Below the pieces are notes generated by a model, which was given only the letters and a program-made list of their open reading frames with translations, did not search any database and was not told where the DNA came from. Positions 39,681 to 61,660 of a stretch of 64,000 bases of DNA are shown piece after piece; positions within the stretch are counted from its first letter, which is position 1, and each line of letters starts with the position of its first letter. The position numbers and the translations under genes were made by a program. This DNA is from Acidobacteriota bacterium (GTDB lineage Bacteria; Acidobacteriota; UBA6911; RPQK01; JAJDTT01), in assembly GCA_965217775.1 (NCBI GenBank), contig CBDCJH010000002.1, positions 768,001 to 832,000 of the forward strand. Reading direction: 5' to 3'.

Positions 39681-39890
39681 GTTTCTATAACTTCCCTAAA
39701 CCATTCATTATAAAATAGTTAAGTGTTTTTTGACTCCGCTCTTCCACGGCTTGACCGAACGCTTACAAACGAACGAACGATGCCGAGCGACTCTCCATGG
39801 ACCCCACGTTTCGGGTGATCGGTTCGCAGAAGATCCGGGAGCCCCCCCACGGCGGCGTAAAGCCCAGAACCATGCCTCCGGGTTATAATT

Positions 39891-40520
39891 TTACTGCTTG
39901 GGAACGCTCTTCATTTTCCTCAATACCTCTTGTGCTAACGGGCCATTTTGAGCCTCAATCGCGACGGCCGCTGCGGCGGCCAGGGCGGTCATATCAGCCC
40001 AGAGCAACGCGTCCAGAATCTCGGAGTCCTGGTAATTGTAGCCAAGACCTTGGGGCGTGAGTCGCGCCCCGATTTGCTGGTAGCCAGTGTGAGTATAGCT
40101 GCACAACATTTTCCACGATTGATCCTTTACACCTGAAAAGGGTTTGGACTGGAAGTGAGGAGATTTCTCGAGCGCCGTAATGATATCGGAATTGGGCGGG
40201 ACCTTGTCTCGCCCAGCCCGGTCAATTTCTTCATCGGTCGCCGCGTACATCAGCCACATTCCTCTGAGGTACGCCTCATACATCGACCGGACTAGCGCGA
40301 GGGCCGAACCGTGAAGCGTTGCGTGAACGAGCTCGACAATAGCCATCGAGTGCTCGATTGTGACGAGCCAGCAAGCCGCCGCAAGCTGTAACCGTTTCGA
40401 ATTTGGCCACTGCGGAATCCTCATTCCGTCAAATTTCGATCTCCACCAGCGCACAATGCATTCAGACTTCTTTAATCGCTGGGCGATGGCAGGTGACAGC
40501 GCGGGTTGTGGGTTGCTCAA
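39891..40520 (-). CDS. Hypothetical helical protein (DUF5677/DUF6988-like)
   Basis: SALALVRSMYEAYLRGMW and LCSYTHTG pattern. Confidence 0.55.
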   Translation of the reverse strand: MSNPQPALSPAIAQRLKKSECIVRWWRSKFDGMRIPQWPNSKRLQLAAACWLVTIEHSMAIVELVHATLHGSALALVRSMYEAYLRGMWLMYAATDEEIDRAGRDKVPPNSDIITALEKSPHFQSKPFSGVKDQSWKMLCSYTHTGYQQIGARLTPQGLGYNYQDSEILDALLWADMTALAAAAAVAIEAQNGPLAQEVLRKMKSVPKQ

Positions 40521-40816
40521 TTCTTTCTCCTTGTCGTGTCCACCGAAATTTCCATTTTAACCGTCGCTGTCCATTCTTCTGAGTTCGATAACGTAAGAGT
40601 ACTCCCCACCATTTTGCAAGCGGCAATCCTAGTGTCCTCTTCGACTCCCTTCGGATTTGAGCGTAAGGTGACGGGGTGACCCGTAGGCGCTACGTCGCGC
40701 TTTTCACGCAGTGGTGGTTCTGGCGCAGGTCCGGCGGCATCAGGTCAGGATCTCGACCTCCGGCCGGTTTTTCACAGATACGGAATTGCGGTCTGTCTTC
40801 TATTGTCCCTGTGTAC

Positions 40817-41911
40817 TCATTTGTTGGATTTTCTGCGATTGCACTGCTTGCACAGCATTTGACAGTTCTGTGCGATTGTCTTGCCGCCCTCGGCCCAAGG
40901 GGTGATGTGGTCGGCCTCCATATACGACATCTCAAACTTCTTCGCACATGACTTGCAAATGCCGTTTTGACTCTCGAACGCCTTCTGCTTCATGGCGGGG
41001 GAGAAGGCCCGGATGTTGAGATGTTTCTCCTCGCCGGTGAGGAGATACGGGTAGATGCCCGCCTTTTTCGTCACATCGTCGTCGATCATCAGGCGGACAA
41101 TGTCGTCCTCAAGTCCTTCGGGATCCAGGCTCTCGTCTTTGAGTTGCCCGTAAAGCCCGCCCCAATCCACGCCTTTCATTGGCTTGCGGTAGTTCGGGAA
41201 AACCGCTTCCACCCGGTTGATTACCGCTTGGAAGTGACTCCACAAGGCGGTTGCGGTCTTGTCGTGCTGATGCGTGGCCATGTACTCTTCGACCGTCTGG
41301 CCCTCGTCCTTGATCCATTGGATCGCGATTTCGAGGTACTCCTGGCGATCCGCCCTCCCTTTCACATACCGACTTCCGATTGCATAAGCCGGGCAGGCGG
41401 CCCCCTTCCGGCTGAAATGCCGCTTTGCGTCGGACACCCACGGGCCAGCATAGACCGCATTCCGCAGCTCTTGGCTGGTCAGCCTTTCGCCCGCGATGTT
41501 GATGATCCTGAACCAAGCCAGCTTCTCGCTGGCACTCCCCTCGCAGAAATAAACCTGCAACGGGTAATTGAGGATCCGCTCCTGCTCGTCGTCTTGCAGG
41601 TTGTGGAAATACCGCCCGTCAAGGGAGTAGTCGCCTTTCACGTACTGCGCGGCTGAGATCGTGCGCTGCTGGCCGTCTATGACTTCATACGTTCCGTCTT
41701 GGCGCACGGCCCAATACATCACATTGAGCGGAAAGCCCTTGTTGATCGTCTCGATCACCGCATTGCGCTGCTTGTCCTTATAGACAAACTCGCGCTGAAA
41801 AGGCGGGCGGATGTCGAGTTTGCCGCCATAGCCGCGCACCCCGCCTTCGCCGTCGTCATGGTAGTCCTCCACAAGGTCGCGGACTGTGATTTTCTTCAGA
41901 TCAATTTTCAT
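40817..41911 (-). CDS. DUF262 (GmrSD-like) plus HNH endonuclease
   Basis: PPFQREFVY, IDGQQR, F..IN; C-terminal CKSC..EADHI.PW..GG....NCQMLCKQCN. Confidence 0.88.
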   Translation of the reverse strand: MKIDLKKITVRDLVEDYHDDGEGGVRGYGGKLDIRPPFQREFVYKDKQRNAVIETINKGFPLNVMYWAVRQDGTYEVIDGQQRTISAAQYVKGDYSLDGRYFHNLQDDEQERILNYPLQVYFCEGSASEKLAWFRIINIAGERLTSQELRNAVYAGPWVSDAKRHFSRKGAACPAYAIGSRYVKGRADRQEYLEIAIQWIKDEGQTVEEYMATHQHDKTATALWSHFQAVINRVEAVFPNYRKPMKGVDWGGLYGQLKDESLDPEGLEDDIVRLMIDDDVTKKAGIYPYLLTGEEKHLNIRAFSPAMKQKAFESQNGICKSCAKKFEMSYMEADHITPWAEGGKTIAQNCQMLCKQCNRRKSNK

Positions 41912-42434
41912 TGCGGCAGCACTCTCTTAATCAGAAGGCGAACATAAGTGGGTCTGAACTCGCCCCCAACCTTTATCACACCCCTTCTATTCAGATTGCC
42001 TGCGTTGGGCACATCTGCCACCGAGTATTCTTTCGTCTTAAGATCGGAGTTGTTGTCCCTGTCTGTTATCCCCATGACTTCGAACTGCTCCGGGTTGTGT
42101 TTGTCCAGAAATGTTATCGGCACCCCCATCGCCCCGTCCCAATCCATCGGGATTTCGGCGGTCTTGTCCACATTGATCGCGTCGTAGTTGTCGTAGGCCG
42201 GGTATTCCTCCGGCGAGTACCGCTTGTAGAGGATCAATTCCTCGTGGCGCATGGCATGGTCGAGATTGGTGAACCAGCCGACGTTTCTGAATTTGACCAG
42301 TCCGGTCGATTCGTCGAAGTACGACTTGCTTTCGTAGCGTTCAACGTCCGCCACCTTGAAATACGCGTTTCCATTGCTGAAGCCATATCCAAACCACACC
42401 CGGTTCTCTTTGATTAGCGGAAAAATCTCCTTAT

Positions 42435-44430
42435 CCCAGATTATTCATCACGCAAACATAAAATGGGAAAGCGTTCCCGCCATGTCGAGTCGGATCAGAG
42501 GGTTACGGGATACCCACAGAAAAAGGTCGAGAGCCGCCGTGGGTGAAACGCTATCGTGGTTTTCGACTCCGCCTTAATCTTTGGGTTCAGAGGGGTCCGA
42601 AACCCTCGCATTTCCAAGGTTTTCTCCCCTTCCATGGGCGGCAAAAAGAGGCGGCGTGCCCGTCATTTGTGGTATGATTATGGTGCTAAGAAACAACAAC
42701 AAAGAACGGAGCACGCCATGCCTGAGACGATACCGCAGATCCGGCCCTCATTCAACCGATCCCTCCGCCTCGAGACCCGCCCCGAGTTGCTCAGTGCGGA
42801 CACGGGAGCCCTGGTGCAACGGGAGATGATGGATCGTAGCGGCCTCATCGATTGGTTGACCGAGCGGTTGCACGATCGGCGACACCCGAGTTCGATCCGC
42901 TATCCGCTGTCGGATCTGCTGCGGACTCGACTCCTGCTGCTGGGGCAGGGCTGGCGCGACCAGTCCGACGCCGACCGCCTGCGTCAGGATCCGAGCTTGC
43001 GGGTGGCGAGCCAGACCCGTCGGGGCACGGCGGCCTTGGAGGAGGGCCAGGGGCTGGCATCGCAGCCGACCTTGTCCCGACTGCTGGACACGCTCAGCCG
43101 GGAGGAGAACGTTCCGGTCCTGCACCAGGCGGTGACGGAGCTGGCGTGCCGTCGGATCGAGATGATCGAAGGTCGGCGGCGAAAACGGGGGAAAAAGACC
43201 CCACGGAAGAAGAGACGGAAAAAGACGATGGTCCTGGACGTGGACGGTCTCCCGGTGGAGGTCCATGGGCATCCCCCGGGAAGCGAATGGAACGGATACT
43301 ATCGCCAGCGGATGTACCACGGGTTGGTGGCGAGTTGTGCCGAGACGGGGGACCTGATCGACGGGGAGATTTTTCCGGGAGCCAGCTACTTGGGGAAGAA
43401 GGCGCTGAAGTTGACGCTCCGGGTGGTGGACCGCTGTCGGGGGCGTCTGTGCGGCTCGATGATCGTTCGGATGGATGCGGGGTTCCCGGAGCCGGGGCTG
43501 CTGAAGGGGCTGGAATCGAGAAGCGTGCCCTATATCGCTCGAATCCGCAAGAATGAGGTCCTGAATCGGATGGCGAAGCCCTACTTGACCCAACCGGCGG
43601 GGCGATCCCCGGATGCACCACCGAGGCTCTGGTTCCATGAGCTGACCTATCAGGCGGAGAGTTGGGATCGGGCGCGCCGGGTGGTGCTGGTGGTGCGGGA
43701 GCGACCGGGGGAGTTGTATCCGGATCATTTCTGGTTGCTGACGAGCCTGAGCCGGAAGCGTTATGAGGCGGAAGCGTTGCTGGCAAAGTATCGCAAGCGG
43801 GGGAAGGCGGAAGGGCACATGGGGGAGTTGATGGACGTGTTCGATCCGGCCTTGTCCTCCGCGAGCCGGCCCAAGACGCACTATCGGGGCAAACCGCTGA
43901 AGCCGGGAGCCAAGCCGGAAGCGACGACGGAGGCCGGGGTTCGACCCCACAACGAAGTCTTGTTCCTGCTGAATCTGCTGGGGTACGAGATCCTGCACCT
44001 GGGTCGGGTGCTGATGGAGCAGGCGACGCGTCGGGGCTGGAGTCTGCGTCGTTTTCGCGAACGGGTGTTGCGAGTGGCGTCTCGGGCGCTGCGTCAGGGG
44101 AGGCGATTGATTTTCGTCATCAGTCAAGGGGCGACGGACTGGAAGCGGTTGTGGAAGAGCCTGGCGCGGGTGTCCTGGGCGCCGGGATAGTGGACGGAGG
44201 AGGAATCGGGCCCGTGGAAGGGACCGAAACGGTGGGAATTTCTCACCGGAAAGTCAACCTGTCGGCGGATGACGGTCCCCCTGGCCGGTAAACGGTTTAT
44301 GAGTGGTTCAATCGTCCTGTTTTTGAGCCGATTCAGTCGAATCGACAGAGGTTCGAGAGAAACCGGGCTCCGACCGCCAGAAAACGCCGGGCTGGAAGCC
44401 CTTATCAACATGTCCCATGAATAATCTGGG
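42435..44430 (+). mobile_element. IS1380-family insertion sequence
   Basis: IR CCCAGATTATTCAT/ATGAATAATCTGGG; 5-bp TSD CTTAT. Confidence 0.92.
42718..44190 (+). CDS. IS1380 family transposase
   Basis: LASQPTLSRL, LDVD..VHG, VRMDAGF, YRKRGKAE. Confidence 0.9.
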   Translation: MPETIPQIRPSFNRSLRLETRPELLSADTGALVQREMMDRSGLIDWLTERLHDRRHPSSIRYPLSDLLRTRLLLLGQGWRDQSDADRLRQDPSLRVASQTRRGTAALEEGQGLASQPTLSRLLDTLSREENVPVLHQAVTELACRRIEMIEGRRRKRGKKTPRKKRRKKTMVLDVDGLPVEVHGHPPGSEWNGYYRQRMYHGLVASCAETGDLIDGEIFPGASYLGKKALKLTLRVVDRCRGRLCGSMIVRMDAGFPEPGLLKGLESRSVPYIARIRKNEVLNRMAKPYLTQPAGRSPDAPPRLWFHELTYQAESWDRARRVVLVVRERPGELYPDHFWLLTSLSRKRYEAEALLAKYRKRGKAEGHMGELMDVFDPALSSASRPKTHYRGKPLKPGAKPEATTEAGVRPHNEVLFLLNLLGYEILHLGRVLMEQATRRGWSLRRFRERVLRVASRALRQGRRLIFVISQGATDWKRLWKSLARVSWAPG

Positions 44431-45147
44431 CTTATAGGTGACGGCGTTCTTGCTCCCGATAATCAGGAACTTCTTGCCGTACTCCTCCAGTTGGGCGACG
44501 TATTCGCGGAACAGCGAAAACGGCGGGTTGGTCACCACGATGTCCGCCTGCTTCAAAAGCTCGATGCATTCCGGGCTGCGGAAATCCCCGTCCCCTTCAA
44601 ACGCATGGACCCCAATATCCTCTACGTCGGGTACTCTGCCGCCCTTAGAGTTCCCCTTGTATTCGAGCCATATCGCCCGCTCCACATCGTGACGGCTGAA
44701 TAGGTCGCGGTCCTGGTTCTTGTAGCACGCAGTGATGAGCTTCTTCAGGCCCAGGCGCTCGAAGTTGTACGAGAAGTAATGGAAGAAGTTGGAGACGCGG
44801 GGATCGTCGCAATTGCAATACACGACTTTGCCCCGGAAATGTCTGGTGTAGTGGCGCAGCTCGTTCTCGATGTCGGAAAGCTGCGTGTAGAACTCGTCGT
44901 TCTTCTGCCGCTTGGCTTTTCGTAAGTTTTCATTCAGAGACATGGGTTTGCTCCCTAACCAAGCCTGTTATCGGTGATCAGTCCCCGATATTTGAGCCGC
45001 TCATGCTCGTTCCCCAACCTCGGCACTTCGCTAGATTATTTCCTTCTCGTAAACCGCGTCCTGCCAGTCATCCGCGAATTCGGCGGCGCGGGCACGGACT
45101 TCGTTCCAAGGCAGGCGCATTAGCCTGAGCGACGGCGCGAGCCTCGA

Positions 45148-45471
45148 TCATGCGTGCAGCGCCCCCGTGCTCCGTTCCAAAGCCGTCCGGTCGCGCCGCG
45201 CCTGCGCAAGCTCGTAGCTCGCCTGCATCCGCATCCAGTGTTCGGCGGTACCCCAGCCGATATCCTCCAACGCCAACGCCATGTTCGCCGACACCCCTGC
45301 CTTGCCGTTCAGCAACCGCGACAGCGTTCCGCGCTCGCAGCCGAGACGCGCCGCCGTCTCGGTCACGTTCCAGCCCATATCGTCCATGCTCTCCCGGATC
45401 AGTTCGCCCAGGTGCGGCGGACTCAGCATCGGACCGACGCGCTCGCTTGAAATGTCGTTCATGGTCAGCAC
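45148..45471 (-). CDS. higA: HigA antitoxin
   Basis: PPHLGELI, HTH, WMRMQASYEL. Confidence 0.85.
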   Translation of the reverse strand: MLTMNDISSERVGPMLSPPHLGELIRESMDDMGWNVTETAARLGCERGTLSRLLNGKAGVSANMALALEDIGWGTAEHWMRMQASYELAQARRDRTALERSTGALHA

Positions 45472-45480
45472 TCCCTTCAG

Positions 45481-45753
45481 TCAGTGATAGTCGATCAGGT
45501 CAACGTCCACGGCTTCGCCGTCCTCGAAGCGGAACACCACGCGCCAGTTCCCGGAAACGCGAACGCTCCACTGGCCCGCACGGTCGCCCTTCAAGGGATG
45601 CAGCCGGAAGCCCGGCGCATCGGCGCTTCGCGGATGCGTCGCCTCTTGCAGACGGAACAGGATGCGCCGGAGCCGTGGCACGAAACCGACAGGTACCCGC
45701 GCGGGATTGTCCCGCTCATGCAGCGCCCGCAACCCCTTATGTCTAATCTTCAT
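45481..45753 (-). CDS. higB: HigB toxin (RelE family)
   Basis: RHKGL, LHPLKGDR.G.WSVRVSGNWR..FRF, DYH. Confidence 0.88.
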   Translation of the reverse strand: MKIRHKGLRALHERDNPARVPVGFVPRLRRILFRLQEATHPRSADAPGFRLHPLKGDRAGQWSVRVSGNWRVVFRFEDGEAVDVDLIDYH

Positions 45754-46179
45754 AGACCACGATGCAACTATTGTAACGCGAAACGCTACGCGCTGCGAAG
45801 CCTCGGTCACTGGCCAACGTTACGCATACGCCCCTCGGCTACGTGTTCCTCCCTGAGTGGCCTGAGGAACGCCTACCGGTCCCGGACCGTGGCTGGAGTA
45901 AGGCGAAACAGGCCGAACCCCAATCTGCTTGACACACTCTTCACGATGAAACTGCGACAAGAGTGGCTGCGAGAGTCCCTCGTAGAGAACCACGCGGAAC
46001 CGTTGGCGGTTGTTGGAAACGTTCTTCTTGCCGATGATCCGGTCGCTGTGGGTCAGGAGATGCGCCGGCCGCGGAGCCTCTCCACCGCCTGCTTCCTGAG
46101 GGTCTCCAGCCGCTGCTCGTGGATGTCGGGGGCGTTCATGCGTCCCATCTTGCCCGTCACGGGTGTCATTTTTAGCCTT

Positions 46180-46445
46180 CCCGCCAGGGATAAATGGGAT
46201 GGGAGCGACCCCCCCAGGGGGCGTTGCGCAAATGTGAATTGCGCAACGCCCCCGCGCCCGCTCCGGGCAGCAAAAAGGGGGGGTCGCTCCCGTCCACGTC
46301 CCCATTCCCCGAGCGGGCACCGCCGGTCCGAGGAATGGGACGTAAACATAGGAAAGACAAGGAGATCGGGGAAATCTCGTGTGTAAGTTGGCGAACTCTC
46401 ATAGTGTAAGTCACCCCCTTTGTCTCACTTACACTCCTGGATCGA
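46180..46445 (-). repeat. oriT-like module, inverted copy
   Basis: Reverse complement of the 33422-33678 module with the same cloverleaf and GTAAGT/ACTTAC triplet. Confidence 0.75.
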
Positions 46446-46482
46446 CACGGGTACCGCACTCTGAAACCTGAGCGAGACGGAG

Positions 46483-47203
46483 TTGACATTGATCTGCAGC
46501 TTGATGATGGACGGCGAGGTGCTGGAAGAGATGGAGGCCCCGCTGACGCCCAACGGTCAGGACGCCCAGTTCGTCAGTGAGATGTTCGAATACTACACGT
46601 CGGACTTTTCGGGATCGGTGCCTTGCGTGGTGCCAGGCATCGCAAAAAAGTTCACGGAAGTCGCAATAGAAATGGATCCCATGAACGGCATCGTCACCAC
46701 GCTACCGGTGATTCCTCTGGAGAGTGATAGGCTGCCGGAAGAAACGATGGCAGCACCACCGCCGGTGGTTGCGGTCGACATTTACGCGACGGTCTCGGGG
46801 GCAGCACTCGGCTCCGTGATGGTTGAGGACACGGACAACGGTGTCCGCTTCACGCCCGATTTGACAGGCGTCACTGCTGGCGAGCATGGCTTTCACGTCC
46901 ATGTGAACCTGGACTGCGACATGGCTGACCAAAAACGCGGGAGGGCACTATGACCCGGCGAATACGGGGCGTCACGAAGGACCCGAGGGGAACGGTCATC
47001 TTGGAGACCTGCCGAGACTGATGGTCGCCGGAAACGGCACAGCGACCGCTCCTGTAGTCACCCGGCGGGTCCAGGTAAGCAATCTTGCGGGTCGTTCCTT
47101 GATGGTTCACGCGGGTGGTGACAACTACTCGGACATGCCTGATCCGCTTGGCGGAGGTGGATCGCGCGTGGCGTGCGGAGTCGTACCGGCCATCGAGAAT
47201 TAG
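46483..47203 (+). pseudogene. sodC: Cu/Zn superoxide dismutase remnant fused to a surface-protein fragment
   Basis: HGFHVH, GHLGDLPRL, SLMVHAGGDNYSD.P.PLGGGG.RVACG; internal deletion and frameshift. Confidence 0.8.
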
Positions 47204-47454
47204 TCGTATAGCCGGGCCGATCACAAGACTGCCAACAGCTTTCGCCATTCCCGATGGAGTGGCCGCCCCCTGGAATCCCCGAGCCGGAGGAAGTGTGCCT
47301 GGAGTCGCTGGCGGGCGCTTCAGACGCGCCATGCCAGTCGCGCACCACAAGGGGGAGATTCCTCTGAGCCACGGGTGGATTTCCGGGATGCTATGCTTGT
47401 CTGTGAGAGAGACGAACTCTAATAGACGTTACCCCAAATGAGGAGGGAGGAGCC

Positions 47455-47952
47455 GTGAATACATGGTGGCTTGCCATTGATCGGAATCAGGGGAATGCTT
47501 CTTACGAAAAGTTGAAAAATCGGAAAGTGGTAGCACAAGGATGGCCGAAACTGGGAGATCTGAGAACACTCTGCACTCTAGTTGAAAAGGGGGATAGAAA
47601 CGCATTCACTCACAAGGTGAGGGCCCGGCATTTGCTTGTGTACGGCGAAGAGTACAGTAGTCAAGCCTCTCGTATCATGTGGGACTTGTTGAGCTTGAGA
47701 TCCGGTGATCTTGTTGTGGGGATTGAAGGAGTCGCTGTAAAAGGCATTTGCCGACTGGAGCAAGAAGGATGGGAAAGCTATAAGCATGACTCCACATACG
47801 AGTATGCCCAAACTGTCGGTTTCCCGGTCGAGTGGGTTGATTGGGAGTTTGATTTTACGCCACGTGCCCCGAACCAAGGCGTGCCAGGAATCAGACAGCT
47901 TCAAAGCGAAAGGGAGAAAGTAATTTCTGTTTGGGAAAACCGAGAAATCTAG
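47455..47952 (+). CDS. Stand-alone PUA/EVE-like domain protein (resembles N-termini of Mrr/McrB-type enzymes)
   Basis: VAQGWPKLGDL, GDLVV..G..VKGI, VEW pattern; strong RBS; low GC. Confidence 0.45.
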   Translation: MNTWWLAIDRNQGNASYEKLKNRKVVAQGWPKLGDLRTLCTLVEKGDRNAFTHKVRARHLLVYGEEYSSQASRIMWDLLSLRSGDLVVGIEGVAVKGICRLEQEGWESYKHDSTYEYAQTVGFPVEWVDWEFDFTPRAPNQGVPGIRQLQSEREKVISVWENREI

Positions 47953-48057
47953 TCGATAGGCTCCTAAATTCCTTTTCTACAGGAGACAAGAGGGCATCCA
48001 CACCTCGGTCATTCAGCCAACAACGGTTACCGCGCCTTGCAGGCGAGAGGTCATTCG

Positions 48058-48358
48058 TGACTCGTTTCGGCAGTGCGTCAAGGGGGTCATGTGGCCGATC
48101 CGGGAGTGTGAATGGGACAAGCCGGGTGGATTCACAAAAAGCGGTCCCGGTGATTCACAAAGACGCTTCCCCCGATCTCCCTTTCCTGCTTGTGGTTACG
48201 GCCAGATCCGCGGACGCCGGCGCCCGCACGGGGAAATCGGAGGTGGACGGGAGCGACCCCCCCTTTTTGCTGCCCGTATCGGGCACGGGGGCGTTGCGCA
48301 ATTCACATTTGCGCAACACCCCCTGGGGGGGTCGCTCCCGTCTCATTGATCCCTGCGG
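48058..48358 (+). repeat. oriT-like module, complete copy
   Basis: GTGAAT/ATTCAC triplet plus cloverleaf. Confidence 0.75.
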
Positions 48359-48483
48359 GAAGGCCCCTGCGAAGATTCCTGAAGACTTGTTGTGGCCGTC
48401 CAAGGCGTCCATGCTCCCCACGTGATACAATGTGATCTATGTATGACCACAGGCTATAAGTGCCCCTGTGGTACGCTTGAAGG

Positions 48484-48905
48484 ATGAAGGGTTTTCGCGT
48501 CCGCTTGGACGACGACCTGGACCGAGTCCTGGAATTTCTGGAGTCGGAACGCTATGTGAACGTCGGCGCCTGGGTCCGCTCTCTGCTACGCGCGGGCCTG
48601 ACCCAGCAACGTTGGGTGCGGCTCCGGGGGTGGCGCCCCTCCTGGAAACTCCAACTACGAGATCTCCGCCGCTTCGGAGTTGGAGTCCCTACAAGCTCGA
48701 AGATGGCTCCTGGGGATCTTCCTACCTTGGCGATGCCGTCAAGCTCCCCGAGGACCCGGCCAGGTGCTCCATCGAGATTACGCCCCGGCGGGGAGACTCC
48801 TGGACCGCCACCGTGTTAGACGTCATCGAGCGCCGGGAGATTTCGTCCTGGTCCGCGACTCGGGGAAACCATCCGACGCTGCGTGATTTATCGGTTGGGA
48901 GGTAA
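48484..48905 (+). pseudogene. RHH-like small protein, apparently frameshifted
   Basis: MKGFRVRLDDDLDRVLEFL...VGAWVRSLLRAGL beta-alpha-alpha pattern; a plausible continuation lies in another frame. Confidence 0.45.
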
Positions 48906-48930
48906 ACTGGGCTGAATTGGAGGAGAACCC

Positions 48931-49167
48931 ATGGGAGTCATGGTAAGCGAGATTTACGACGCGTTGATCGATGCGGGCGCGACTGAAGCCAAGGCACGGG
49001 CGGCGGCGGAGGCCATTCCAATCAGTGACCAGTTAGCCACCAAACAGGACATCATCGAACTCAAAACCGACATCGCCAGCCTGAAAGCAGATTCCAAGAT
49101 CATCAAGTATGTCTTCGCTCCTGCTGTCATCTTCCTGCTCCTCAAGATCGCATTCTTCTCCTCCTGA
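48931..49167 (+). CDS. Small coiled-coil protein with C-terminal TM (DUF1640-like)
   Basis: YDALIDAGA.E..A, LATKQDI..LK; RBS GGAGGAG. Confidence 0.7.
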   Translation: MGVMVSEIYDALIDAGATEAKARAAAEAIPISDQLATKQDIIELKTDIASLKADSKIIKYVFAPAVIFLLLKIAFFSS

Positions 49168-49186
49168 TCAGATGGGGACAACCATT

Positions 49187-50083
49187 ATGAGCACGAAATC
49201 CTCTCAGGGGGAGCGACCATGGCCCTCCACTCAGCAAATGTTATTGGATCACCTGCAACGAATTGTGGAGGGAGTGACCCTCTTTGAAGACGATTCCGGT
49301 GAGCATTGGTGGTTCGGGTTTGGGGACTGCCTAATTTCGAAGACTTGGTGCATAGACGAAGATGATCATGAGTTTAACAAACGAGTAATGGATAACGCCG
49401 CCATCACCATGTTCTTGTCCAACCTAGGTGTTGAAGCCAGAGATCGCCCTAGCGGCCCTGTTATCCGAAAGACGAATCCTGACCTCCTGAAAACTCTTAC
49501 CGAGATTTTTTCCGATAGACCATCACCTCAGGAATTTCTACGGCAGAGGGTTCCTGAGGTCGGCGTCGGATTAGAGGAAGCGTATGCATTCGAGATGTTG
49601 AACAAGCTGGATCAGGTTGTGGGCCGCAGCAAACAAAAGGCGGTCCAAGAAATTCTGCTTCTGGAGGATGTTCCGGAGGGGGTGGATGACTATATGGCCG
49701 AAGCTGCGGCCTGCTTCCGTTACGGGTTTGACAAAGCGTGCTTGGCAGTCTGCCGAACAGCGCTAGAGGAAATGCTCAAAAAGCGGATTGAATGCGATCA
49801 TGGCAAACGTGCCATCCAGACCTATGATAAACGTAGAGAGCGTTGGGTCGATAAAAATCTCTACACTCTCATCGAGGAAGCACACAAGCAGTACGGGCCT
49901 AAGCAGCAATGGTCTAAGTATCTGAACGACCAGTTGGCTGGGGCTGCCCATCGAATTCGAAGATGGGGGAATGGAGCAGTTCACGGCTCTAGCACAATCC
50001 CCCGTGATGAAGTTAAGTCCAAAGCACAAAGGGCTCTCTTGCACTCCAAACAGATACTGGAACATCTCTGGTCATCGGTCTGA
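49187..50083 (+). CDS. DUF4145 (HEPN-like) domain protein
   Basis: EAAACF..G...A...CRTALE and IRRWGNGAVH. Confidence 0.7.
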   Translation: MSTKSSQGERPWPSTQQMLLDHLQRIVEGVTLFEDDSGEHWWFGFGDCLISKTWCIDEDDHEFNKRVMDNAAITMFLSNLGVEARDRPSGPVIRKTNPDLLKTLTEIFSDRPSPQEFLRQRVPEVGVGLEEAYAFEMLNKLDQVVGRSKQKAVQEILLLEDVPEGVDDYMAEAAACFRYGFDKACLAVCRTALEEMLKKRIECDHGKRAIQTYDKRRERWVDKNLYTLIEEAHKQYGPKQQWSKYLNDQLAGAAHRIRRWGNGAVHGSSTIPRDEVKSKAQRALLHSKQILEHLWSSV

Positions 50084-50346
50084 CTTCGGTCCTATGAGAA
50101 GGGCATAGTCCCCTTTATTGGGCTCTGATCCGATCCCAGAGCGGTCCTCCCTTCCACTCTTCCACGGCGCGCCGGGTGCATCTCTGGACCCGAGCTTCGC
50201 GACCGGAGACGACCTTCCCCAGCGGAAGCTTCGCCGCCCGCCGCTTCCGAATCTCAATCTAGGTTCCAGCAGAGAGTAGCGTGCTAATATGCTAGCGTGC
50301 GCTCCCTTCAGTGGAGGCCAAACGGTTATCAAGGAAAGAGCGAGTA

Positions 50347-51300
50347 ATGAGGAACCTCTGTGCCATCGCAATCGCCGTTTTGTTCAATGGCGTGCTGCTG
50401 GCCCAGGACGTGACGGAATACTACGTCCCGAATCCTCACTTCCCCGACACTTACGGAGGGGAGCATCATGTCCTCATCACGTCCATGCGAAACACCCTCG
50501 ACGAACCATTGGTGGTCGCCGTGACACAGGGTGAGCACTGCCAAGATTTGGAGTTGGAGGATTCTGGGCTCACCTTTGAAATCGAGGCCGGAGACAAACT
50601 GGACAGTCGGCGGGAGAGTACAGATGGAGACGCTCCGGCCTGGACGAAAGTTTCTCATCCGCCAGTAGATGGGGGAAAGCGTCTCCTGAAGATTTCACAG
50701 TTCTGGAGGCATGTGGACAAGTGGGGCCGGACCATATCCTCTGCCCCCGTGACGTTGCACCACGAAGTATTTGCTGAATGCCCGGAGCCAAAGACCTTCC
50801 ACGGGTTGCGGATCGAACCGGAAAACCGTTGCTCGCCGTATGACCCGGAAGACTACAGCTACCCGGCTTCAATCAAGGATCAAGTCGCCAAGCAGCAGGG
50901 GGGAGCTTTCTGTCCCTACGATTACCAGTGCTTCGCCAGCACCGACGAAATGAGCCTCGATCATATGGTTTCCCGGGCCGAAGCACACGACTCGGGTCTG
51001 TGTCGTGCCAGTGCAGAGGCCAAGAAGCAATTCGCCTCTGATCTGTCTAATCTGACGCTGATACCGAAGGAGTTCAATCCTTACTGGGAATCCGAGAAGC
51101 TGGACAAGGATGCTGCGGAGTGGGTGCCCGGGACCAATGAGTGCTGGTTTGCAGGGACGGTGATTGAGGTGAAGCGCAAATACAGGCTGTCTGTCGATCA
51201 GGCCGAAGCGGACGCCCTTGAGGAAGTTCTCGCCGGTTGCGCCGCATCCGAAATTGGGAGGATGCACGGACCGGACTGGCCCGAATGTGTTGGGGAATGA
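50347..51300 (+). CDS. Secreted protein with DUF1524/HNH-like nuclease domain
   Basis: Signal peptide; LDHMVSRAEAHDSG, FASDLSNL, KDAAEWVP, VKRKYRLSVD. Confidence 0.7.
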   Translation: MRNLCAIAIAVLFNGVLLAQDVTEYYVPNPHFPDTYGGEHHVLITSMRNTLDEPLVVAVTQGEHCQDLELEDSGLTFEIEAGDKLDSRRESTDGDAPAWTKVSHPPVDGGKRLLKISQFWRHVDKWGRTISSAPVTLHHEVFAECPEPKTFHGLRIEPENRCSPYDPEDYSYPASIKDQVAKQQGGAFCPYDYQCFASTDEMSLDHMVSRAEAHDSGLCRASAEAKKQFASDLSNLTLIPKEFNPYWESEKLDKDAAEWVPGTNECWFAGTVIEVKRKYRLSVDQAEADALEEVLAGCAASEIGRMHGPDWPECVGE

Positions 51301-51884
51301 TGGGCTCCGTCAGGGGTCTAGGCAAGGGGAACTGCGTAGCTGAGTGCCCCAATGAACTCTCTCCATTGGGGTTCGTCCATCAGTCTTCCTCAAGGTTATC
51401 CGATATCGCCAACAGAGAGTGCGCAATGGCGCGTGCCGGGGCTCGGGACAAGTTGGCGTACTGGGGAATGCCAGACTGATATTCGATCCGGTGGCTTGGA
51501 AGTCCGATCCTGAATTCTATCGGGTGCTCGGGGCGTCGCTGGCTCCTATGAAAACCGGACAGGCGACGTTCCTAGTGTTGACCTGGAAGGTTCGGCTTTT
51601 TTTACTTCTCACGGTGCTCTCTCCATCGGTTCCGTTGCCTTCGCCCTGATGTATTTGCTGCCGACGGTAGCGCTCTGGGCGCTCCTCGTCATCCATGTTC
51701 TCCTCGATGTGCCGCTTGAAGGCCCTGTACCCCCAGCCGAAGCCTGCCAGCAAAAGGGACCTAACGGGCACTCAGCTACGCAGGACCCCCCATTTTATGG
51801 TTCGCCTGTAACCGATGCGCTGATTGCCCGGGAAGCCGGGAAGCTGGGGATATCAGACTTCGAGCCGGCCCGTCGCACTGATCC

Positions 51885-52085
51885 AAGTGCCTAACCGGAG
51901 GCCCTTCAGTGTTGCCGCCGCGGCCCAGTACCTGAGCAATGCCATCGGCACGATTCGCAACCTGGCCGATTTGAACATCATCAAAGCCAGAGTCGAACTC
52001 GACACCGCCGGCCGGCTACGGCGGGTCTTCGCTCAGGAGGACTTGGACGACGATGTCGATTCTCTGGAGCCGTGGTACGATTCGC
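51885..52085 (+). pseudogene. Excisionase-like HTH upstream of the integrase, boundaries uncertain
   Basis: FSVAAAAQYLSNAIGTIRNLAD...RRVFAQEDLD; the ORF runs on without a normal stop. Confidence 0.55.
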
Positions 52086-52124
52086 CCCACGGCGAAGAAC
52101 CCGGATCCAGAAAGGAGGAGATGC

Positions 52125-53210
52125 ATGGGCATCTACAAGGTGAAGGATCGCCGGGGGAGGAGACGATACGTCTTCAGCAAGTACTGGCCGAACGGATCCG
52201 GTCGGCTCCGAATGTACGCCCCCAACTACCGGAGCGCACAGGCGCTCCAAACTCGGGTGGAGTCCAGCATCCTGGACGGCACCTGGAAGCAACTCAAGGA
52301 GGAACTCGCCGGTGGGAAACGCACCATCTGGACGGTGCACAGTTTCTACCAGCGTTTTCTCGAGGAGTATTGCAAACCTCGCATGCGCTCCTGGCGGAGC
52401 TATGAGGGTTCGTTCAAGAGCCTCAACGCCATGCTGGGGAACATTCCCCTGAAGGAGTTCCAACGCAAGGACCTGCACCGCTACGTCGCCCAGAGGAAGA
52501 AGCAAGTCAAATCGGCCACGGTGAACCGCGCCATCGCCGCCATCAGCAAGCTGTTTTCCTACGCGCTGGAGTGTGGGGAGATCGACACGCACCCGCTGGT
52601 GCGGTTTTCCAAACTAAAGGAGCCCAAGAAGGTCTTCCGGCCATTGACGGTTCAGCAGTTCCGCGACCTGGTCGAGGCGGTGGACAACCCTTACCTGCAA
52701 GCCATGATCGCAGTGATCGGCGAGACGGGGATACGCAAGGGAGAAGCGTTGTCGCTCACTTGGAAACGGGTGGACCTGCGTCGCGAATTGCTCTGGGTGG
52801 AACTCACCAAGAACGACGAGACGAGGGAGATACCGCTGTCGAAGTACGCCACCGGATATCTGGTCGGGCTGGTTCGTTATCTGAACACTCCATACGTCTT
52901 CGTCAACAGCCGGACGGGGACGAGATGGGTGAATCTCGACAAGCCGCTACGTCGCGCTGCCGAGAAGGTGGGGTTGAAGGTCGGATTTCACGATCTGAGG
53001 CGCTTCCGGTGCAGCCATTGGCTGATGCAGGGTGTGGACGTGAGGACGGTGCAGAAGCTGATGGGACACTCGGCGATCAGCACGACGATGCGGTATGCGG
53101 GGTACGTCAGTTCGCATGCGCTGGCAAGCATTCGGGAGGCACAGGCTAACGAAGACTCACAAACACAACAGGCAACAAACAGGCAACGGGCAGGAAGCAA
53201 GGGGCAATGA
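52125..53210 (+). CDS. Tyrosine recombinase/integrase, catalytic residues intact
   Basis: TGIRKGE, TKN, FHDLRR, LMGH, TMRY; RBS AAGGAGG. Confidence 0.93.
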   Translation: MGIYKVKDRRGRRRYVFSKYWPNGSGRLRMYAPNYRSAQALQTRVESSILDGTWKQLKEELAGGKRTIWTVHSFYQRFLEEYCKPRMRSWRSYEGSFKSLNAMLGNIPLKEFQRKDLHRYVAQRKKQVKSATVNRAIAAISKLFSYALECGEIDTHPLVRFSKLKEPKKVFRPLTVQQFRDLVEAVDNPYLQAMIAVIGETGIRKGEALSLTWKRVDLRRELLWVELTKNDETREIPLSKYATGYLVGLVRYLNTPYVFVNSRTGTRWVNLDKPLRRAAEKVGLKVGFHDLRRFRCSHWLMQGVDVRTVQKLMGHSAISTTMRYAGYVSSHALASIREAQANEDSQTQQATNRQRAGSKGQ

Positions 53211-53253
53211 TTCGAGGGAATACTTGGGATAACCTGTTGAAAATAAAGGATCA

Positions 53254-53293
53254 ATCCTGTAGCTCAGTTGGACCGAGCAACGGATTTCCAATC
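53254..53293 (+). other. 5' tRNA half (Arg-like) forming the island right att end
   Basis: ATCCTGTAGCTCAGTTGGACCGAGCAACGGA resembles acceptor, D-arm and anticodon stem; no T-arm follows. Confidence 0.75.
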
Positions 53294-57677: not shown

Positions 57678-57860
57678 CGGCTGCTTCTTGGTGAGGCCAT
57701 GGAATGATCTGCTCGAATCGAGTCTATTCCGGGCCGGGCATCCCGGTCAACGCGCCTGGAGGGGGGACAGTCTTGTCCCCCATTTGGGAGGGGGGACTGT
57801 TAGTCCTAATTGTCTCTCAGTCAAAAACTAACGAACATTAACTTTTTACGGAGCAAATGC

Positions 57861-58113
57861 GGAGGTTGCCGGCTGAACCCGTTTCCTGGTAGCCGACTTG
57901 TAATCGGTACGGCGTTAACAGCCCGTGGTAAAAGTCGTCACGGCATTCGACCGTCCCTGCATCCCGGCGGACTGCGTTGCTATCGGCTCACATACTCCCG
58001 GTATGCTCCCTCCGTTGCGCCTTGTCCGGCGGGCGCAGGAACGGTCTCGGTGCTCGCGGGACTTTCACCACGGGCTGTTAAGCCGCGCGGGTTCGACTCC
58101 CGCCCCGCTTCCA
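57861..58113 (+). pseudogene. tRNA-like sequence split by a MITE
   Basis: GCCGA-CTTGTAA-TCGGT stem-loop, V-arm-like CGGC/GCCG, T-arm GCGGG-TTCGACT-CCCGC, ends CCA; D-arm non-canonical. Confidence 0.45.
57915..58081. mobile_element. ~165-bp MITE, copy 2
   Basis: TTAA-CAGCCCGTGGTAAAAGTC ... GACTTTCACCACGGGCTG-TTAA. Confidence 0.85.
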
Positions 58114-58265
58114 TCAGCGTATGATAGTTGGGAATCTCAGGATGCAATCAGAAACGAAGATGCCCGCCAAGCAGGCCGAGCGACCGAGGCTCGACACCGC
58201 GCTCACCGAGAATCTAAAGATGCTGGGGTTCGAGGGTGGGGGGCCGTGAAGCCCGGAGGGAACTC

Positions 58266-60017
58266 GTGAACGTAACCGACGCGGAAATCCGCCAGCGTTT
58301 GCGCCTGGGCGAGGACAGCGGCTGGGAGTTCAAGCAGATCGAATTTAGTGGCGATCGCCCGACAAGCCTCCGGCGAGAGGACCTCTCCGATGAGATTGCG
58401 GCCTTCGCCAACGCGAACGGGGGCGTGCTTCTTTGCGGGATTTCCGACGGCGGTCGGATCCAGGGTATGTCCCCAGAGCAGATGGCCGCTCTTGACCACC
58501 TGTTGGTCGAAGTGAGCACGGACGCGGTGGAACCTTCCCTTCGCATCCACGTTCACCATCGAGAACTCGACGGCAGGGCCTTCGTACTCGTGGCTGTACC
58601 GCGGGGCGATGCCGTACACGAGCGAGCCGGTCGCGCATTCATCCGGGTCGGCGCAACCAAACGCCGCCTCGGCGGCGACGAGCGTCTGCGGCTGGCGCGA
58701 GGACGCGCCCAGAGCCGCTACGTCTGGTTCGACCGGCAGATTGTTCCGCAGACCGGCTTCGAGACCCTCAACGAGCGTCTTTGGGAACCGCTGCTCAGCG
58801 TGGCAGGAGCGTCTGACCCTCGCCGGGCTCTGATGAACCTTCGGCTTCTGGCGCCCGATGAAGCCGATGTGGACCGGGCCACGGTAGCTGGCGTGCTGCT
58901 CTGCACCAACTCTCCCCAGGACTGGTTGCCGCAAGCGACTATCGTGGCGACCCGCTATCGCGGCAAGGAACGAGCCTCCGGCCAGTTGGACGCACAGGAA
59001 ATCGCAGGGCCGCTTCCCATCCAGATCGCTCACGCGGTGAAGTTCGTGGTCCGCAACATGCGCGTATCGGCACGCAAGACGCCTTCGCGAGAAGATGCGC
59101 CGCAGTACAGCAAGTCTGCGGTGTTTGAAGCCGTGGTCAACGCGGTTGTGCACCGCGACTACTCAATGTCCTCGCGCCGGATCAGGCTGTCGATGTTCAA
59201 GGATCGGCTGGAGATTGACTCGCCCGGTCAACTTCCCAACGGGATGACAATAGACAGCATGGATTCGAGTCAAGCAACACGCAACGAAGTTCTCGCTTCC
59301 GTGTTTGGACGAATCCCCGTGGGCGACGTTCCCGGGTCTCGGCATCGCCGATACATGATGGAACGCCGAGGGGACGGCGTCTCGATCATCCTCACGGAAA
59401 CCCGCGAGACCGCCGGCATTGAGCCGGAGTACAGAGTCATTGATGTGTCGAGTCTGGTGCTGGCTATCCCGGCGGCCAGACTCGAACTCACACCGTCGGA
59501 CGCCACGGTCACGGTGCACATGGAGGGCGAGCCTCTAGTCGGCGTCGACATCCTGGCCCTGTTTCCGAACAAGACTTGGCAACGGGCAACAACCGACGAA
59601 GCTGGCGAAGCAGACTTCGACCTGTACACGACGCATCTGCCGATGACCGTTTACGCCGCAGTCTCCGGGTACACTGCCGGGTTGGCACGGGAGTGGACTC
59701 CGCGCCAAGGCGGCCTGTTGCTGGAACTGGCTCCGCTCCTGGCCGGAGGCGCGATCATTTTTCCACAGTCTACCGGACATCTCCCCGGACTTCGCGGACG
59801 GCTGAACCCGATACGCGATACTTCCGATCGGACCTATCTGTACGCAGACAACGTCGCCATCGAGCAGGGACGGCAGCAGCCGGTGTCGTTCCGGCTGGGC
59901 AAACCGATGAGGCTAACAGACGCGTTCGGTGTCGAAATGTCAGTAACCATAGTCGACATCATTGGGAGTTCGGCCCTAGTGGAATACAGGCCCTTCGAAA
60001 CCAGCAAGAACCGGTGA
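58266..60017 (+). CDS. Schlafen/AlbA_2 plus HATPase_c_4-like protein with a beta-rich C-terminal extension
   Basis: GEDSGWEFK, AFANANGG.LL.GI.D, EAVVNAVVHRDYS, SPGQLP, MERRGDG. Confidence 0.85.
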   Translation: MNVTDAEIRQRLRLGEDSGWEFKQIEFSGDRPTSLRREDLSDEIAAFANANGGVLLCGISDGGRIQGMSPEQMAALDHLLVEVSTDAVEPSLRIHVHHRELDGRAFVLVAVPRGDAVHERAGRAFIRVGATKRRLGGDERLRLARGRAQSRYVWFDRQIVPQTGFETLNERLWEPLLSVAGASDPRRALMNLRLLAPDEADVDRATVAGVLLCTNSPQDWLPQATIVATRYRGKERASGQLDAQEIAGPLPIQIAHAVKFVVRNMRVSARKTPSREDAPQYSKSAVFEAVVNAVVHRDYSMSSRRIRLSMFKDRLEIDSPGQLPNGMTIDSMDSSQATRNEVLASVFGRIPVGDVPGSRHRRYMMERRGDGVSIILTETRETAGIEPEYRVIDVSSLVLAIPAARLELTPSDATVTVHMEGEPLVGVDILALFPNKTWQRATTDEAGEADFDLYTTHLPMTVYAAVSGYTAGLAREWTPRQGGLLLELAPLLAGGAIIFPQSTGHLPGLRGRLNPIRDTSDRTYLYADNVAIEQGRQQPVSFRLGKPMRLTDAFGVEMSVTIVDIIGSSALVEYRPFETSKNR

Positions 60018-60201
60018 GAGTTTGGCCGAATATCTTGAAAGTAAGGTTTCCTTTTCCCCCTCAAATTGGGGGATGTAGTCAGGATAATCCTTAAAGTGCC
60101 TCGATGCCTTTCCGATCTCTGGCTTCCAGTCGCAGTATGGTTCGGATCTCGTTGCTTCGTCAGAATCTCGCCCAGGCCCAGGAACTACTATTAGTCCCCA
60201 C

Positions 60202-60241
60202 ATCCCGTAGCTCAGTTGGACAAAGCGACGGACTGTCAGTC
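60202..60241 (+). other. 5' tRNA half forming the right att end of the small element
   Basis: ATCCCGTAGCTCAGTTGGACAAAGCGACGGA; first 29 nt match 53254-53282 at 25 positions. Confidence 0.75.
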
Positions 60242-60280
60242 CCCCCAAGCCCCGGAACCGGGGGTTGCAAACCCCCGCTC

Positions 60281-61660
60281 CTAGAGCCGGATCGGGATCA
60301 GGAGCATGGCGATCACGCTGAAGCAGAAGCAGGCCAGACCCACCAGTGACGAGTAGCCCACCACGTCCCCGAACCGCATCCGCGTCAATGACAATATCGG
60401 TATCGCCCAGAAGGGCTGGATAAAGTTCGTCGTGGAGTCGCCGTAGGCATAGGAAAGCAGGATCGTGGTCACCGAAACCCCCAGTTCCTCGCCGGCGGGG
60501 ATCAGGAAGGGGGCCTCGATCATCCACTTGGAGCCTCCCGAGGGAACGAAGAGGTTCATGAAACCCGAATAGGCGTAGACCACGATCGGATAGGTGCCCG
60601 CGGATGCCAACTTGGCGAACAACCCGCCCAGCCAGGCACCCAACGCCGTGTTGTTCATCACGCCGAAGATGCCGGCATAGAAGGGGAACTGCAGGATGAT
60701 TCCCCAGGTCGCGCCCGCACCTTTGCGGCAGGCCTGGATGAAGGAATCGGGGCGGCCATGGAGCAGCAGAGCGGTTCCCAGAAAGAGCATGTTGTAGCCG
60801 TTGATGGTCCACGCCGTCCCAAAGCCTCGAGTGACCAGGGTATGGCCCAGGGGATAGAGGATCAGGACCACGGCCAGCGCAATCCAGCCGCGGAAACGTT
60901 CGAGAGCGCCGGCCGGTGTCGAGATCCTCTCCGGAAGCAACGGCGGTCGAGGCAGGATAGCTTCCACCTGCTCCGTAGAGAGCGTGATCCGATCTCGTCC
61001 GGGGTGCAGCAGAAGGAGGGTGGCCAGCCCGACGGCGGCGATTCCGACGGTATAGATCAGGTTGAAGGGGTTGAACAGCGTCTCGGTGACCGGTAGCAGG
61101 CGATCCACCACCGGCTGTCCCGTGGCCGGTTCCAGGAACGGATTCCTTGGAGTGGCCATGATGAGGGGCGCGGAAGCGGACAGCCCGCAGTGCCACACCG
61201 TCCCCATCCCCAGGTAGGCGCCGACGATCAGAATCCGGATGTCCGCCCTCGGATTGTGACGGCAGACGAAGGGAATGAAGAGGGCGCCGCCGACGATGCA
61301 GAAGGCCCAGTTCAGGTATCCGGTGACCAGCGAGAACAGGCCCGCCAGGAGCACGGCCTGAAGTGGCCGCTCGGGGTCGGGAATCCGGGCGATGCGATCC
61401 AGCAGCCGGTAGACCGGCCGCGACGACACGCAGGCGTGGGAGGCCACCATGGCGATGGCGAATTGCATCGCCAGCTCCAACAGGGTCCACATGCCTGTCC
61501 CCCAGGCCAGGACCGCCGCCTCCAAGCCCACGCCGGCGCCGGCCACCGCCAGCAGCAGGGCGGCGGCCGTCAAGAACATGCAGATGACCCAGGAATCGGG
61601 CACCCAGCGTTCGGTGAAGCGGGAAAGCGAAACGCCGAGATGTCGGAACCACTCGATCAT
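60281..61660 (-). CDS. atoE: Short-chain fatty acid transporter (AtoE family)
   Basis: ERWVPD, QFPFYAGIFG, FVPSGG.KW, YGD.TTNFIQPFWA. Confidence 0.85.
   Translation of the reverse strand: MIEWFRHLGVSLSRFTERWVPDSWVICMFLTAAALLLAVAGAGVGLEAAVLAWGTGMWTLLELAMQFAIAMVASHACVSSRPVYRLLDRIARIPDPERPLQAVLLAGLFSLVTGYLNWAFCIVGGALFIPFVCRHNPRADIRILIVGAYLGMGTVWHCGLSASAPLIMATPRNPFLEPATGQPVVDRLLPVTETLFNPFNLIYTVGIAAVGLATLLLLHPGRDRITLSTEQVEAILPRPPLLPERISTPAGALERFRGWIALAVVLILYPLGHTLVTRGFGTAWTINGYNMLFLGTALLLHGRPDSFIQACRKGAGATWGIILQFPFYAGIFGVMNNTALGAWLGGLFAKLASAGTYPIVVYAYSGFMNLFVPSGGSKWMIEAPFLIPAGEELGVSVTTILLSYAYGDSTTNFIQPFWAIPILSLTRMRFGDVVGYSSLVGLACFCFSVIAMLLIPIRL

Follow-up and report, generated by a model that had tools for sequence, protein, structure and literature searches.

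A 2.4-kb integrase-less element in a repeated chromosomal hairpin of an Acidobacteriota genome carries the ends of a tyrosine-integrase family with a tRNA-Arg relative

Tyrosine integrases are usually viewed as single-site enzymes of one tRNA or protein gene, and lambda Int follows an overlap-homology rule. Integron cassettes are promoter-poor single-gene units without a recombinase that are moved, through a hairpin-forming site, by a tyrosine recombinase encoded elsewhere. Hairpins of the repetitive extragenic palindromic (REP) and bacterial interspersed mosaic element (BIME) type offer many safe intergenic sites and are entered by the insertion sequences (ISs) IS1397 and ISKpn1 and by IS110/IS1111-family members, which use DDE or DEDD transposases. 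Among islands in tRNA genes, the part of the Islander survey consulted here (PMC4383910) counts 2083 of 3919 at anticodon-centred sites and 159 of 3919 with a 5' tRNA fragment. The consulted text on cis-mobilizable elements (CIMEs; PMC5704250) describes them as having lost integration and transfer genes and kept the attachment sites attL and attR. For mycobacteriophage Ms6, the sections available to us (PMC1762012) report that an altered 7-base attP loop redirects integration to matching loops and that single mismatches block or lower it. Prochlorococcus tycheposons (bioRxiv 10.1101/2020.12.28.424599) are presented, in the portion of that preprint used here, as cargo elements of tyrosine recombinases that have partial tRNAs at their flanks and that also occur as tandem copies and as degenerate remnants without an integrase. 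Here we analyze a 64,000-nucleotide (nt) stretch of an Acidobacteriota genome (assembly GCA_965217775.1, contig CBDCJH010000002.1, positions 768,001 to 832,000 of the forward strand; the window), in which a 2.4-kb element with a single gene (positions 57797-60239; the small element) interrupts the loop of a hairpin that is repeated on the chromosome. We consider it probable that this is a non-autonomous integrative element, resembling a CIME or a cassette, of a family descended from integrators of the tRNA-Arg(TCT) anticodon loop.

Both junctions of the small element can be read directly from the window (Table 1). Its half-stems GGGGGGA and TCCCCCC together make a REP-type hairpin, and an intact GGGGGGA-CTGTTAG-TCCCCC is present at C2:1547054. 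(G000 is the present genome, with C2 its chromosome; G001 to G008 are relatives in the genus, G010 is from a sister genus, and L numbers denote individual loci read in the compared genomes.) The 7-mers between the half-stems, one per junction, are identical at 6 of 7 positions and differ at position 5, T on the left and C on the right, and the copies in G007 and G002 have the same T/C difference. Inside the left junction, the 10-nt spacer is TAATTGTCTC (57807-57816), followed by TCAGTCAAAAACTAACGAACATTAAC (57817-57842). A 22-kb island in the same window, with its TTTCCAA overlap copies at 30857-30863 and 53286-53292, served as the reference for these ends: its attL (30850-30901) reads GGGGCGA-TTTCCAA-TCC, 10 nt and then TCAGTCAAGAACTACTAAACATTAA, and its attR (53256-53300) reads ..GTAGCTCAGTTGGACCGAGCAACGGA-TTTCCAA-TCGCCC. 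The left ends of the two elements, and likewise the right ends, align without gaps across the core and in the same register. A first-pass annotation of this DNA had described a left core followed by exactly 10 nt and a family motif as in the large island, a right end consisting of the same tRNA half in the same register, and an overlap that is unlike TTTCCAA and differs by one base between its own ends; direct reading and the gapless alignments confirmed each of these. The P arm (60204-60232) has 0 mismatches to the right-end pattern, with (A/C)CGGA directly before the overlap, and scores 42.5 bits (E 3.5e-10) against the right-end model R2, whose alignment includes the G007 ortholog. The P' arm scores 52 bits (E 3.6e-13) against the left-end model R1, in whose building it was one of the 11 sequences used. 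The left-end and right-end patterns each matched twice in the window and never in 100 shuffles, and none of the 15 genomes searched contained a match to a reversed control pattern; because both the shuffles and the reversed control were empty, chance resemblance is excluded. An assignment of the tRNA half to tRNA-Asp was rejected: it is most like tRNA-Arg(TCT), and the GTC "anticodon" is merely the variable overlap.

Table 1. Features of the small element, its chromosomal surroundings and the large island (window coordinates)
Feature	Position	Strand	Evidence or remark
Large island, autonomous family member, overlap TTTCCAA, reference for the ends	30857..53292	+	Empty hairpin in G006, G007, G003
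Family integrase, candidate helper, at the right end of the 22-kb island	52125..53210	+	Phage_integrase 1.1e-26
Neighboring REP hairpin GGAGGGGGGAC-AGTCTT-GTCCCCC, outside the element	57758..57781	.	At relatives' empty loci; missing in G002
B arm GGGGGGA, chromosomal left half of the target hairpin	57790..57796	+	Sequence; same arm in intact hairpins
attL overlap copy CTGTTAG	57797..57803	+	Identical 7-mer in G007, G002
P' arm: TCC (57804-57806), 10-nt spacer, CTCAGTCAAAAACTAACGAACATTAAC(TTTTT)	57804..57847	+	Family similarity stops here
Repeat resembling a miniature inverted-repeat transposable element (MITE), hairpin, ~165 nt, inserted into the element	57916..58081	.	Flanks TTAAC/TTAAG; absent from G007 copy
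tRNA 3'-end-like fragment (T arm, acceptor strand, CCA), not a gene	58086..58115	+	
Cargo gene, Schlafen/AlbA_2 + HATPase_c_4 protein	58236..60017	+	PF04326 1.2e-16; PF13749 2.2e-19
P arm CCCGTAGCTCAGTTGGACAAAGCGACGGA, tRNA-Arg(TCT)-like 5' half: D arm and anticodon-stem 5' strand, first acceptor-stem bases missing	60204..60232	+	
attR overlap copy CTGTCAG	60233..60239	+	Sequence
B' arm TCCCCCC, chromosomal right half of the target hairpin	60240..60246	+	Sequence
Downstream REP hairpins CCCCGGAACCGGGG / GGGGGTTGCAAACCCCC	60250..60277	.	At relatives' empty loci

Judging by these ends, the small element is a member of a tyrosine-integrase family that is present throughout this Acidobacteriota genus. 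An alignment of eleven family left ends is gapless over 58 columns, and the family P' arm after the overlap consists of TCC, 10 nt and CNCAGTCAA..ACTA..AA..TTAAC, which is matched at 57804-57842. End profiles built from the same sequences, and therefore giving a census and not a test, identified 9 left ends and 4 right ends in G000; the next-best right-end match there is the true tRNA-Arg(TCT) gene at C2:3954257, whose 5' half is nearly identical to the tRNA half of the elements. Counted per genome, left ends (R1) and right ends (R2, which include true tRNA genes) numbered 33 and 32 in G004, 27 and 21 in G005, 9 and 8 in G000, 9 and 11 in G007, 6 and 4 in G001, 4 and 7 in G008, 3 and 7 in G002, and 1 and 6 in both G003 and G006. 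A scan for integrase relatives yielded 55 loci. The DNA 3' of the integrase was read at 43 of them, the other 12 being fragments or matches that end short of the 3' end, and a P arm follows the integrase at 40 of these 43. Two G007 copies without a P arm (L147 and L153) continue into the same foreign sequence, as though another insertion had interrupted them. Near-full-length integrase matches, counted without a frame check for stops, numbered 26 on the G004 chromosome and 8 on the G005 chromosome, and the copy number in G004 points to transposon-like multiplication of the integrase element. The G004 matches (L116-L149) include 2.7-kb units with CTGTTAG and 3.5- to 20-kb units with CTAACAG. 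Tandem accretion is seen as a P-O-P' junction at L014 in G005. The large island opens with a left end, a 436-amino-acid open reading frame (ORF; 31298-32608) and a second family left end at about 32596 that has a degenerate core and no tRNA half; the segment 30857-32653 looks like a tandem accretion in which the right end of the first unit was lost.

One family member is found at a true tRNA gene. In G003, an integrase 85% identical to that of the large island lies directly upstream of a complete tRNA-Arg(TCT) gene (L021), and CTTCTAA-TCC, 10 nt and TCAGTCAAT come after a displaced tRNA 5' half about 47 kb away (L029). This member is a classical anticodon-loop island, of the less common kind that bears the 5' half. 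As far as Islander tRNA islands are described in the text consulted, the family resembles them in that a tyrosine integrase adjoins the attachment site, the crossover lies in a 7-nt loop between inverted stems and a tRNA 5' half is carried, and the G003 member is exactly so. It differs from them in that the family target is a REP hairpin, the tRNA half, its acceptor start lost, does not restore anything, the overlap has changed and up to 26 integrase matches occur per chromosome. The REP-borne copies keep the segment from CCCGTAG to ACGGA, with the first acceptor-stem bases replaced, and this retained half, with no tRNA to restore, would be the P arm of the integrase. A further tRNA-Arg site was observed in the sister genus, where an integrase 71% identical adjoins a tRNA-Arg(TCG) gene with the loop CTTCGAA (G010 L013), suggesting that the wider family uses tRNA-Arg genes beyond this genus. 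The family appears once to have targeted a tRNA gene and now to insert into genome repeats. The small element is reminiscent of the degenerate remnants of tycheposons with their flanking tRNA pieces. Tycheposons, in the portion of the preprint used, stay at tRNA genes and build islands there, whereas the present family moved to dispersed REP hairpins.

The hairpin types entered by the family are repeated in C2, where GGGCGA-N7-TCGCCC occurs in 92 copies, GGGGGA-N7-TCCCCC in 19 and GGGGGA-N8-TCCCCC in 63, each with 0 copies in the reversed sequence; GGGCGA-N8-TCGCCC had 1 match in the reversed C2 sequence. The REP label is justified by this abundance in C2 and near-absence from the reversed sequence, and it supports the GGGGGA-CTGTYAG-TCCCCC REP target proposed in the first-pass annotation. 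The loops of GGGCGA-N7-TCGCCC in G000 are mostly TTTCCAG/CTGGAAA (26/22), TTTCCAA/TTGGAAA (8/11) and TTTCTAG/CTAGAAA (8/5), and REP loop sequences are the overlaps carried by family elements. At the site of the large island, an intact, precisely empty GGGGCGA-TTTCCAA-TCGCCC between the island's flanks was read in G006, G007 and G003 (3 of the 8 loci read; four of the other five are complete with other sequence, and in one the contig ends). Empty intact hairpins were also found in G000 for a 644-nt mini-element of G007 and in G006 for the C2:2776115 element. The latter is part of a composite (C2:2776115/2779075) of which only the empty site on the right was used, because the sequence to the left of its two left ends is duplicated in G000 (L112). 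Unlike the REP-targeting ISs, the family uses a tyrosine integrase, attP arms and overlap homology. We found no description of a REP-targeting tyrosine integrase in the literature searched (open-access papers and preprints, with subscription journals largely outside), nor, in those papers and preprints, of a move from tRNA to REP by overlap change together with multiplication within genomes.

The overlaps vary between lineages and not between the two ends of one element. Family ends were paired by strand, nearest partner and a spacing of 0.6 to 25 kb, giving 26 distinct loci. The comparison of left and right 7-mers that the first-pass annotation had proposed found them identical (7/7) at 25 of the 26 (3 in G000, 1 in G003, 11 in G004, 6 in G005, 1 in G006 and 3 in G007), with the small element as the sole exception, by one base. 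At 40 integrase-linked right ends, the overlap was TTTCCAA in 8, CTGTTAG in 8, CTAACAG in 7, TTTCCTA in 7, TTTCTAG in 2, CTTCTAA (the true tRNA) in 2 and one of six singletons in the remainder, and the lineages together use at least 12 different natural overlaps. In elements of the TTTCCTA type, attL and attR are identical over exactly 7 nt, and this sets the length of the segment that is exchanged. G004 harbors both CTGTTAG and CTAACAG lineages. These represent one hairpin type entered in opposite orientations, which would be expected of an asymmetric overlap that determines direction. The identical 7-mers at the two ends, together with their match to REP loops, indicate homology-dependent exchange in which the attP overlap of a lineage sets its target. 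The Ms6 retargeting, in the sections available, was achieved by laboratory mutagenesis, whereas the lineages of this family carry their overlaps naturally. The two variants at the small element both occur elsewhere, CTGTCAG in a left end of G001 (L058) and CTGTTAG in left ends of G004 and G008 as well as in the hairpin at C2:1547054. In the established model of tyrosine recombination, when a conservative exchange crosses a 7-nt overlap with one mismatch, the junctions are heteroduplex, and after replication one keeps the base of the element and the other that of the target. The CTGTTAG/CTGTCAG pair fits such a one-mismatch exchange, and a later point mutation fits as well.

No integrase is encoded within the small element (57797-60239): tblastn found no match, there is one cargo ORF, and an AlbA_2 gene occupies the integrase's usual place. 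Together with arms that match the family, this upholds the earlier description of an integrase-less member in a different REP. Similarity to the family extends inward for about 50 nt from the left end and for about 32 nt from the right end. In G000, tblastn detected one intact integrase (52125-53210), 4.6 kb upstream of the small element, and two fragments. The intact protein is an Xer-like tyrosine recombinase with the catalytic R, HxxR, H and Y motifs (GIRKGE, HDLRR, GHS and MRY), and its score against the integron integrase model TIGR02249 is 68 bits, against a cut-off of 265. A second integrase-less mini-element, the 644-nt one on contig C33 of G007, has an unrelated small ORF and retains some 55 nt of P' and 45 nt of P; its left arm is the closest to that of the small element (87% over 61 nt). 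Contig C595 of G008 carries, at another locus, a 92% identical cargo gene with a divergent P arm and CTGTCAG behind it, and the REP adjoining these is a different one. The small element resembles CIMEs, as characterized in the text consulted, in keeping attL and attR without an integrase, and the family shares with them tandem accretion (G005 L014 and the large island). It is unlike those CIMEs, decayed integrative and conjugative or integrative and mobilizable elements at tRNA or protein-gene sites of Firmicutes, in that its arms are trimmed to about 100 nt in total and its target is a dispersed repeat. No conjugation genes were seen next to the small element, although no search aimed at conjugation genes was made. 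Although it resembles integron cassettes as a single-gene unit without a recombinase of its own, it has neither an attC nor an attI platform, and the palindrome is the chromosomal target and not the cassette's own site.

The small element is present in G007 and G002, and the orthologous locus lacks it in G003, G004, G005, G006 and G008. Contigs assembled from public runs contain alleles without it in 4 of 4 runs: 57781 is joined to 60251 through 13 other letters in 4 of 4, and 57769 to 60259 through 39 letters in 2 of 4. These data are Logan contigs only, in which rare excision is not visible, so they do not address activity. The empty loci of the relatives hold the first hairpin only or other REPs. 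The empty site that had been suggested as a check was therefore found in part: the locus is unoccupied in 5 of 7 relatives, but the exact intact hairpin was not found there. In the left flank of the G002 locus (L040), we observed that the first REP hairpin is missing and that about 1.4 kb of unrelated inserted DNA, with CCTGGAG repeated at its two ends, abuts the B arm. Divergence is lower within the element than around it. Against G007, the element has 44 mismatches in 2158 positions (2.0%) and the outer flanks have 335 in 4452 (7.5%; Fisher p 2e-22); against G002, the corresponding values are 50 in 2158 (2.3%) and 322 in 4458 (7.2%; Fisher p 4e-18). The lower divergence of the element indicates that it spread after G000, G002 and G007 had split, and in the G002 comparison the drop in divergence coincides with the right end of the element.

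On the reading that we favor, the attP of the family would combine the tRNA 5' half, as a P arm of about 30 nt, with the 7-nt overlap and a P' arm of about 45 nt. The chromosomal site would be a REP hairpin whose G-rich stem replaces the anticodon stem and whose 7-nt loop must equal the overlap of the element. The small element would have been installed by conservative site-specific recombination with integrase supplied from another family copy; in G000, the sole possible supplier in trans would be the integrase at 52125-53210. An attP with CTGTCAG or CTGTTAG recombining with a hairpin loop that differs at one base would leave one variant at each junction. Trans-mobilization of the small element is plausible, and both the second mini-element and the cargo relative at another site speak for it. 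Several observations weigh against this account. The exact empty GGGGGGA-CTGTYAG-TCCCCCC is absent at the locus from the loci of all 7 relatives and from the public-run contigs, and those contigs contain no excision joint or circle junction. The low-divergence tract shared with G007 runs about 1.15 kb past the right end, and all three carriers share the CTGTTAG/CTGTCAG pair; both features fit spread of the occupied allele by homologous recombination and not by an integrase. The cargo, with the MITE, is held elsewhere in G005 with no family ends within 1.5 kb, and no integrase that was intact and had a normal 3' end turned up in G002 or G007 in the integrase scan. Two segments conserved in autonomous copies, about 100 nt adjoining P' and about 35 nt upstream of P, are also missing from the small element, which may be unable to recombine if arm-type sites lie in them. 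Finally, decay in place is common in the family, with elements of 1.0 to 1.9 kb that contain integrase fragments.

This last point bears most directly on the strongest alternative, in which an autonomous copy integrated here and then lost its integrase and the conserved internal ends by deletion, with no movement in trans. Such decay has frequent precedents: C2:2751738-2753660 (1.9 kb) and its G007 counterpart (1.0 kb) retain integrase fragments only, and G005 contains short end pairs of 1.1 to 1.8 kb. It would also account for the same attL/attR pair in three genomes without any re-integration. Against it, two deletions would be required, both stopping no more than about 50 nt from the core and together leaving no integrase trace; the G007 mini-element, with unrelated cargo and the closest left arm, is trimmed to the same arm lengths; and the G008 cargo relative has the same overlap at another locus. 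We therefore regard decay in place as a serious but clearly less probable explanation than delivery in trans.

Far less likely is an exchange of the Tn916 type, which the first-pass annotation had inferred from the variable overlaps, in which non-homologous overlaps are tolerated and 7-mers are carried from site to site. The one-base difference between the 7-mers of the small element would agree with it, as would two sites that are occupied with CTTCCAG at both ends in one genome and empty with TTTCCAG in another. These two independent loci are C2:3782222-3782239 versus L051 and L105 versus C2:2771585; CTTCCAG loops are rare (2 of 111 N7 REP hairpins in G000), and either only rare C-variant hairpins were used or mismatch correction was biased. 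The coupling sequences of Tn916 and CTnDOT, however, generally differ at the two ends and travel from the previous site, so that joints would usually differ, whereas 25 of the 26 pairs here are identical and equal to the target loops. The empty and occupied sites of the large island share TTTCCAA, and six G004 copies have CTAACAG at both ends; the suggestion of heterology-tolerant exchange was accordingly not borne out. The possibility that there was no separate insertion, with the ends arising by local duplication of the large island's ends or by chance resemblance to a tRNA fragment, is highly improbable, since, although the two elements lie 4.5 kb apart on the same strand, their ends are only about 80 to 90% alike and differ in overlap, shuffles gave 0 matches, and G007 carries the small element while its large-island site is empty.

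More tentatively, and with more doubt than for the reading above, the family might constitute a naturally programmable integrase system with about 100 bp of attP arms derived from tRNA-Arg. The target would be read mainly through the 7-nt overlap, so that a G-rich REP hairpin of any kind could serve for landing if its loop matched. Integrations with one mismatched base, as in the small element, would let the overlap drift between loop types, and integrase-less single-gene units with the two arms at their ends would be shuttled in trans as a REP-based cassette system. Set against the usual single-site view, this lineage would have left tRNA-Arg for REP hairpins that mimic the anticodon stem-loop. 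It provides a natural series of attP and attB sites for asking what share of specificity lies in the overlap, how small an attP can be and whether REPs serve as landing pads for gene gain.

The cargo gene is intact in G007 and G002. Its start is more likely the in-frame GTG at 58266, behind GGAGG, and no domain was assigned to the C-terminal third of the protein. PADLOC gave weak matches to pAgo and Aga models and NCBIfam gave no match; the gene is possibly a defense-related passenger, and with matches of this kind we claim no defense function. A short ORF upstream of it (58160-58249) has a longer counterpart in G008 (L043), which we take, from a motif, to resemble an N-terminal piece of a type I restriction methylase.

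The MITE-like repeat occurs in dozens of copies (86 to 97% identity) in every genome of the genus. In the public-run contigs its depth exceeds 20000, with loose ends at 57915/57919 and 58077/58082, and the loose-end consensus suggests that other copies are flanked by CTAG. It separates two tRNA-like parts, an anticodon-arm-like CCGACTTGTAATCGG (57880-57915) and the fragment at 58086-58115. The latter is most like the 3' end of tRNA-Met(CAT) at C2:5498580 and matched the transfer-messenger RNA (tmRNA) model in the T arm only (18.5 bits, gathering score 47). The two parts may be an attachment-site remnant of another kind of island. ARAGORN found 0 tRNAs in the window and in L002; Rfam at gathering level gave no tRNA match and no family in the element, and the E-value threshold gave the T-arm fragment only. 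A tRNA with an insert at 57880-58115 was considered and rejected, relaxed ARAGORN on the G007 version producing only a poor 96-nt fold. Three nucleotides upstream of the P arm, ACTACTATTAGTCCCC (60186-60201) resembles a half-hairpin (a 7-mer plus TCCCC); conserved in both G007 and G002, it might be what is left of an earlier junction.

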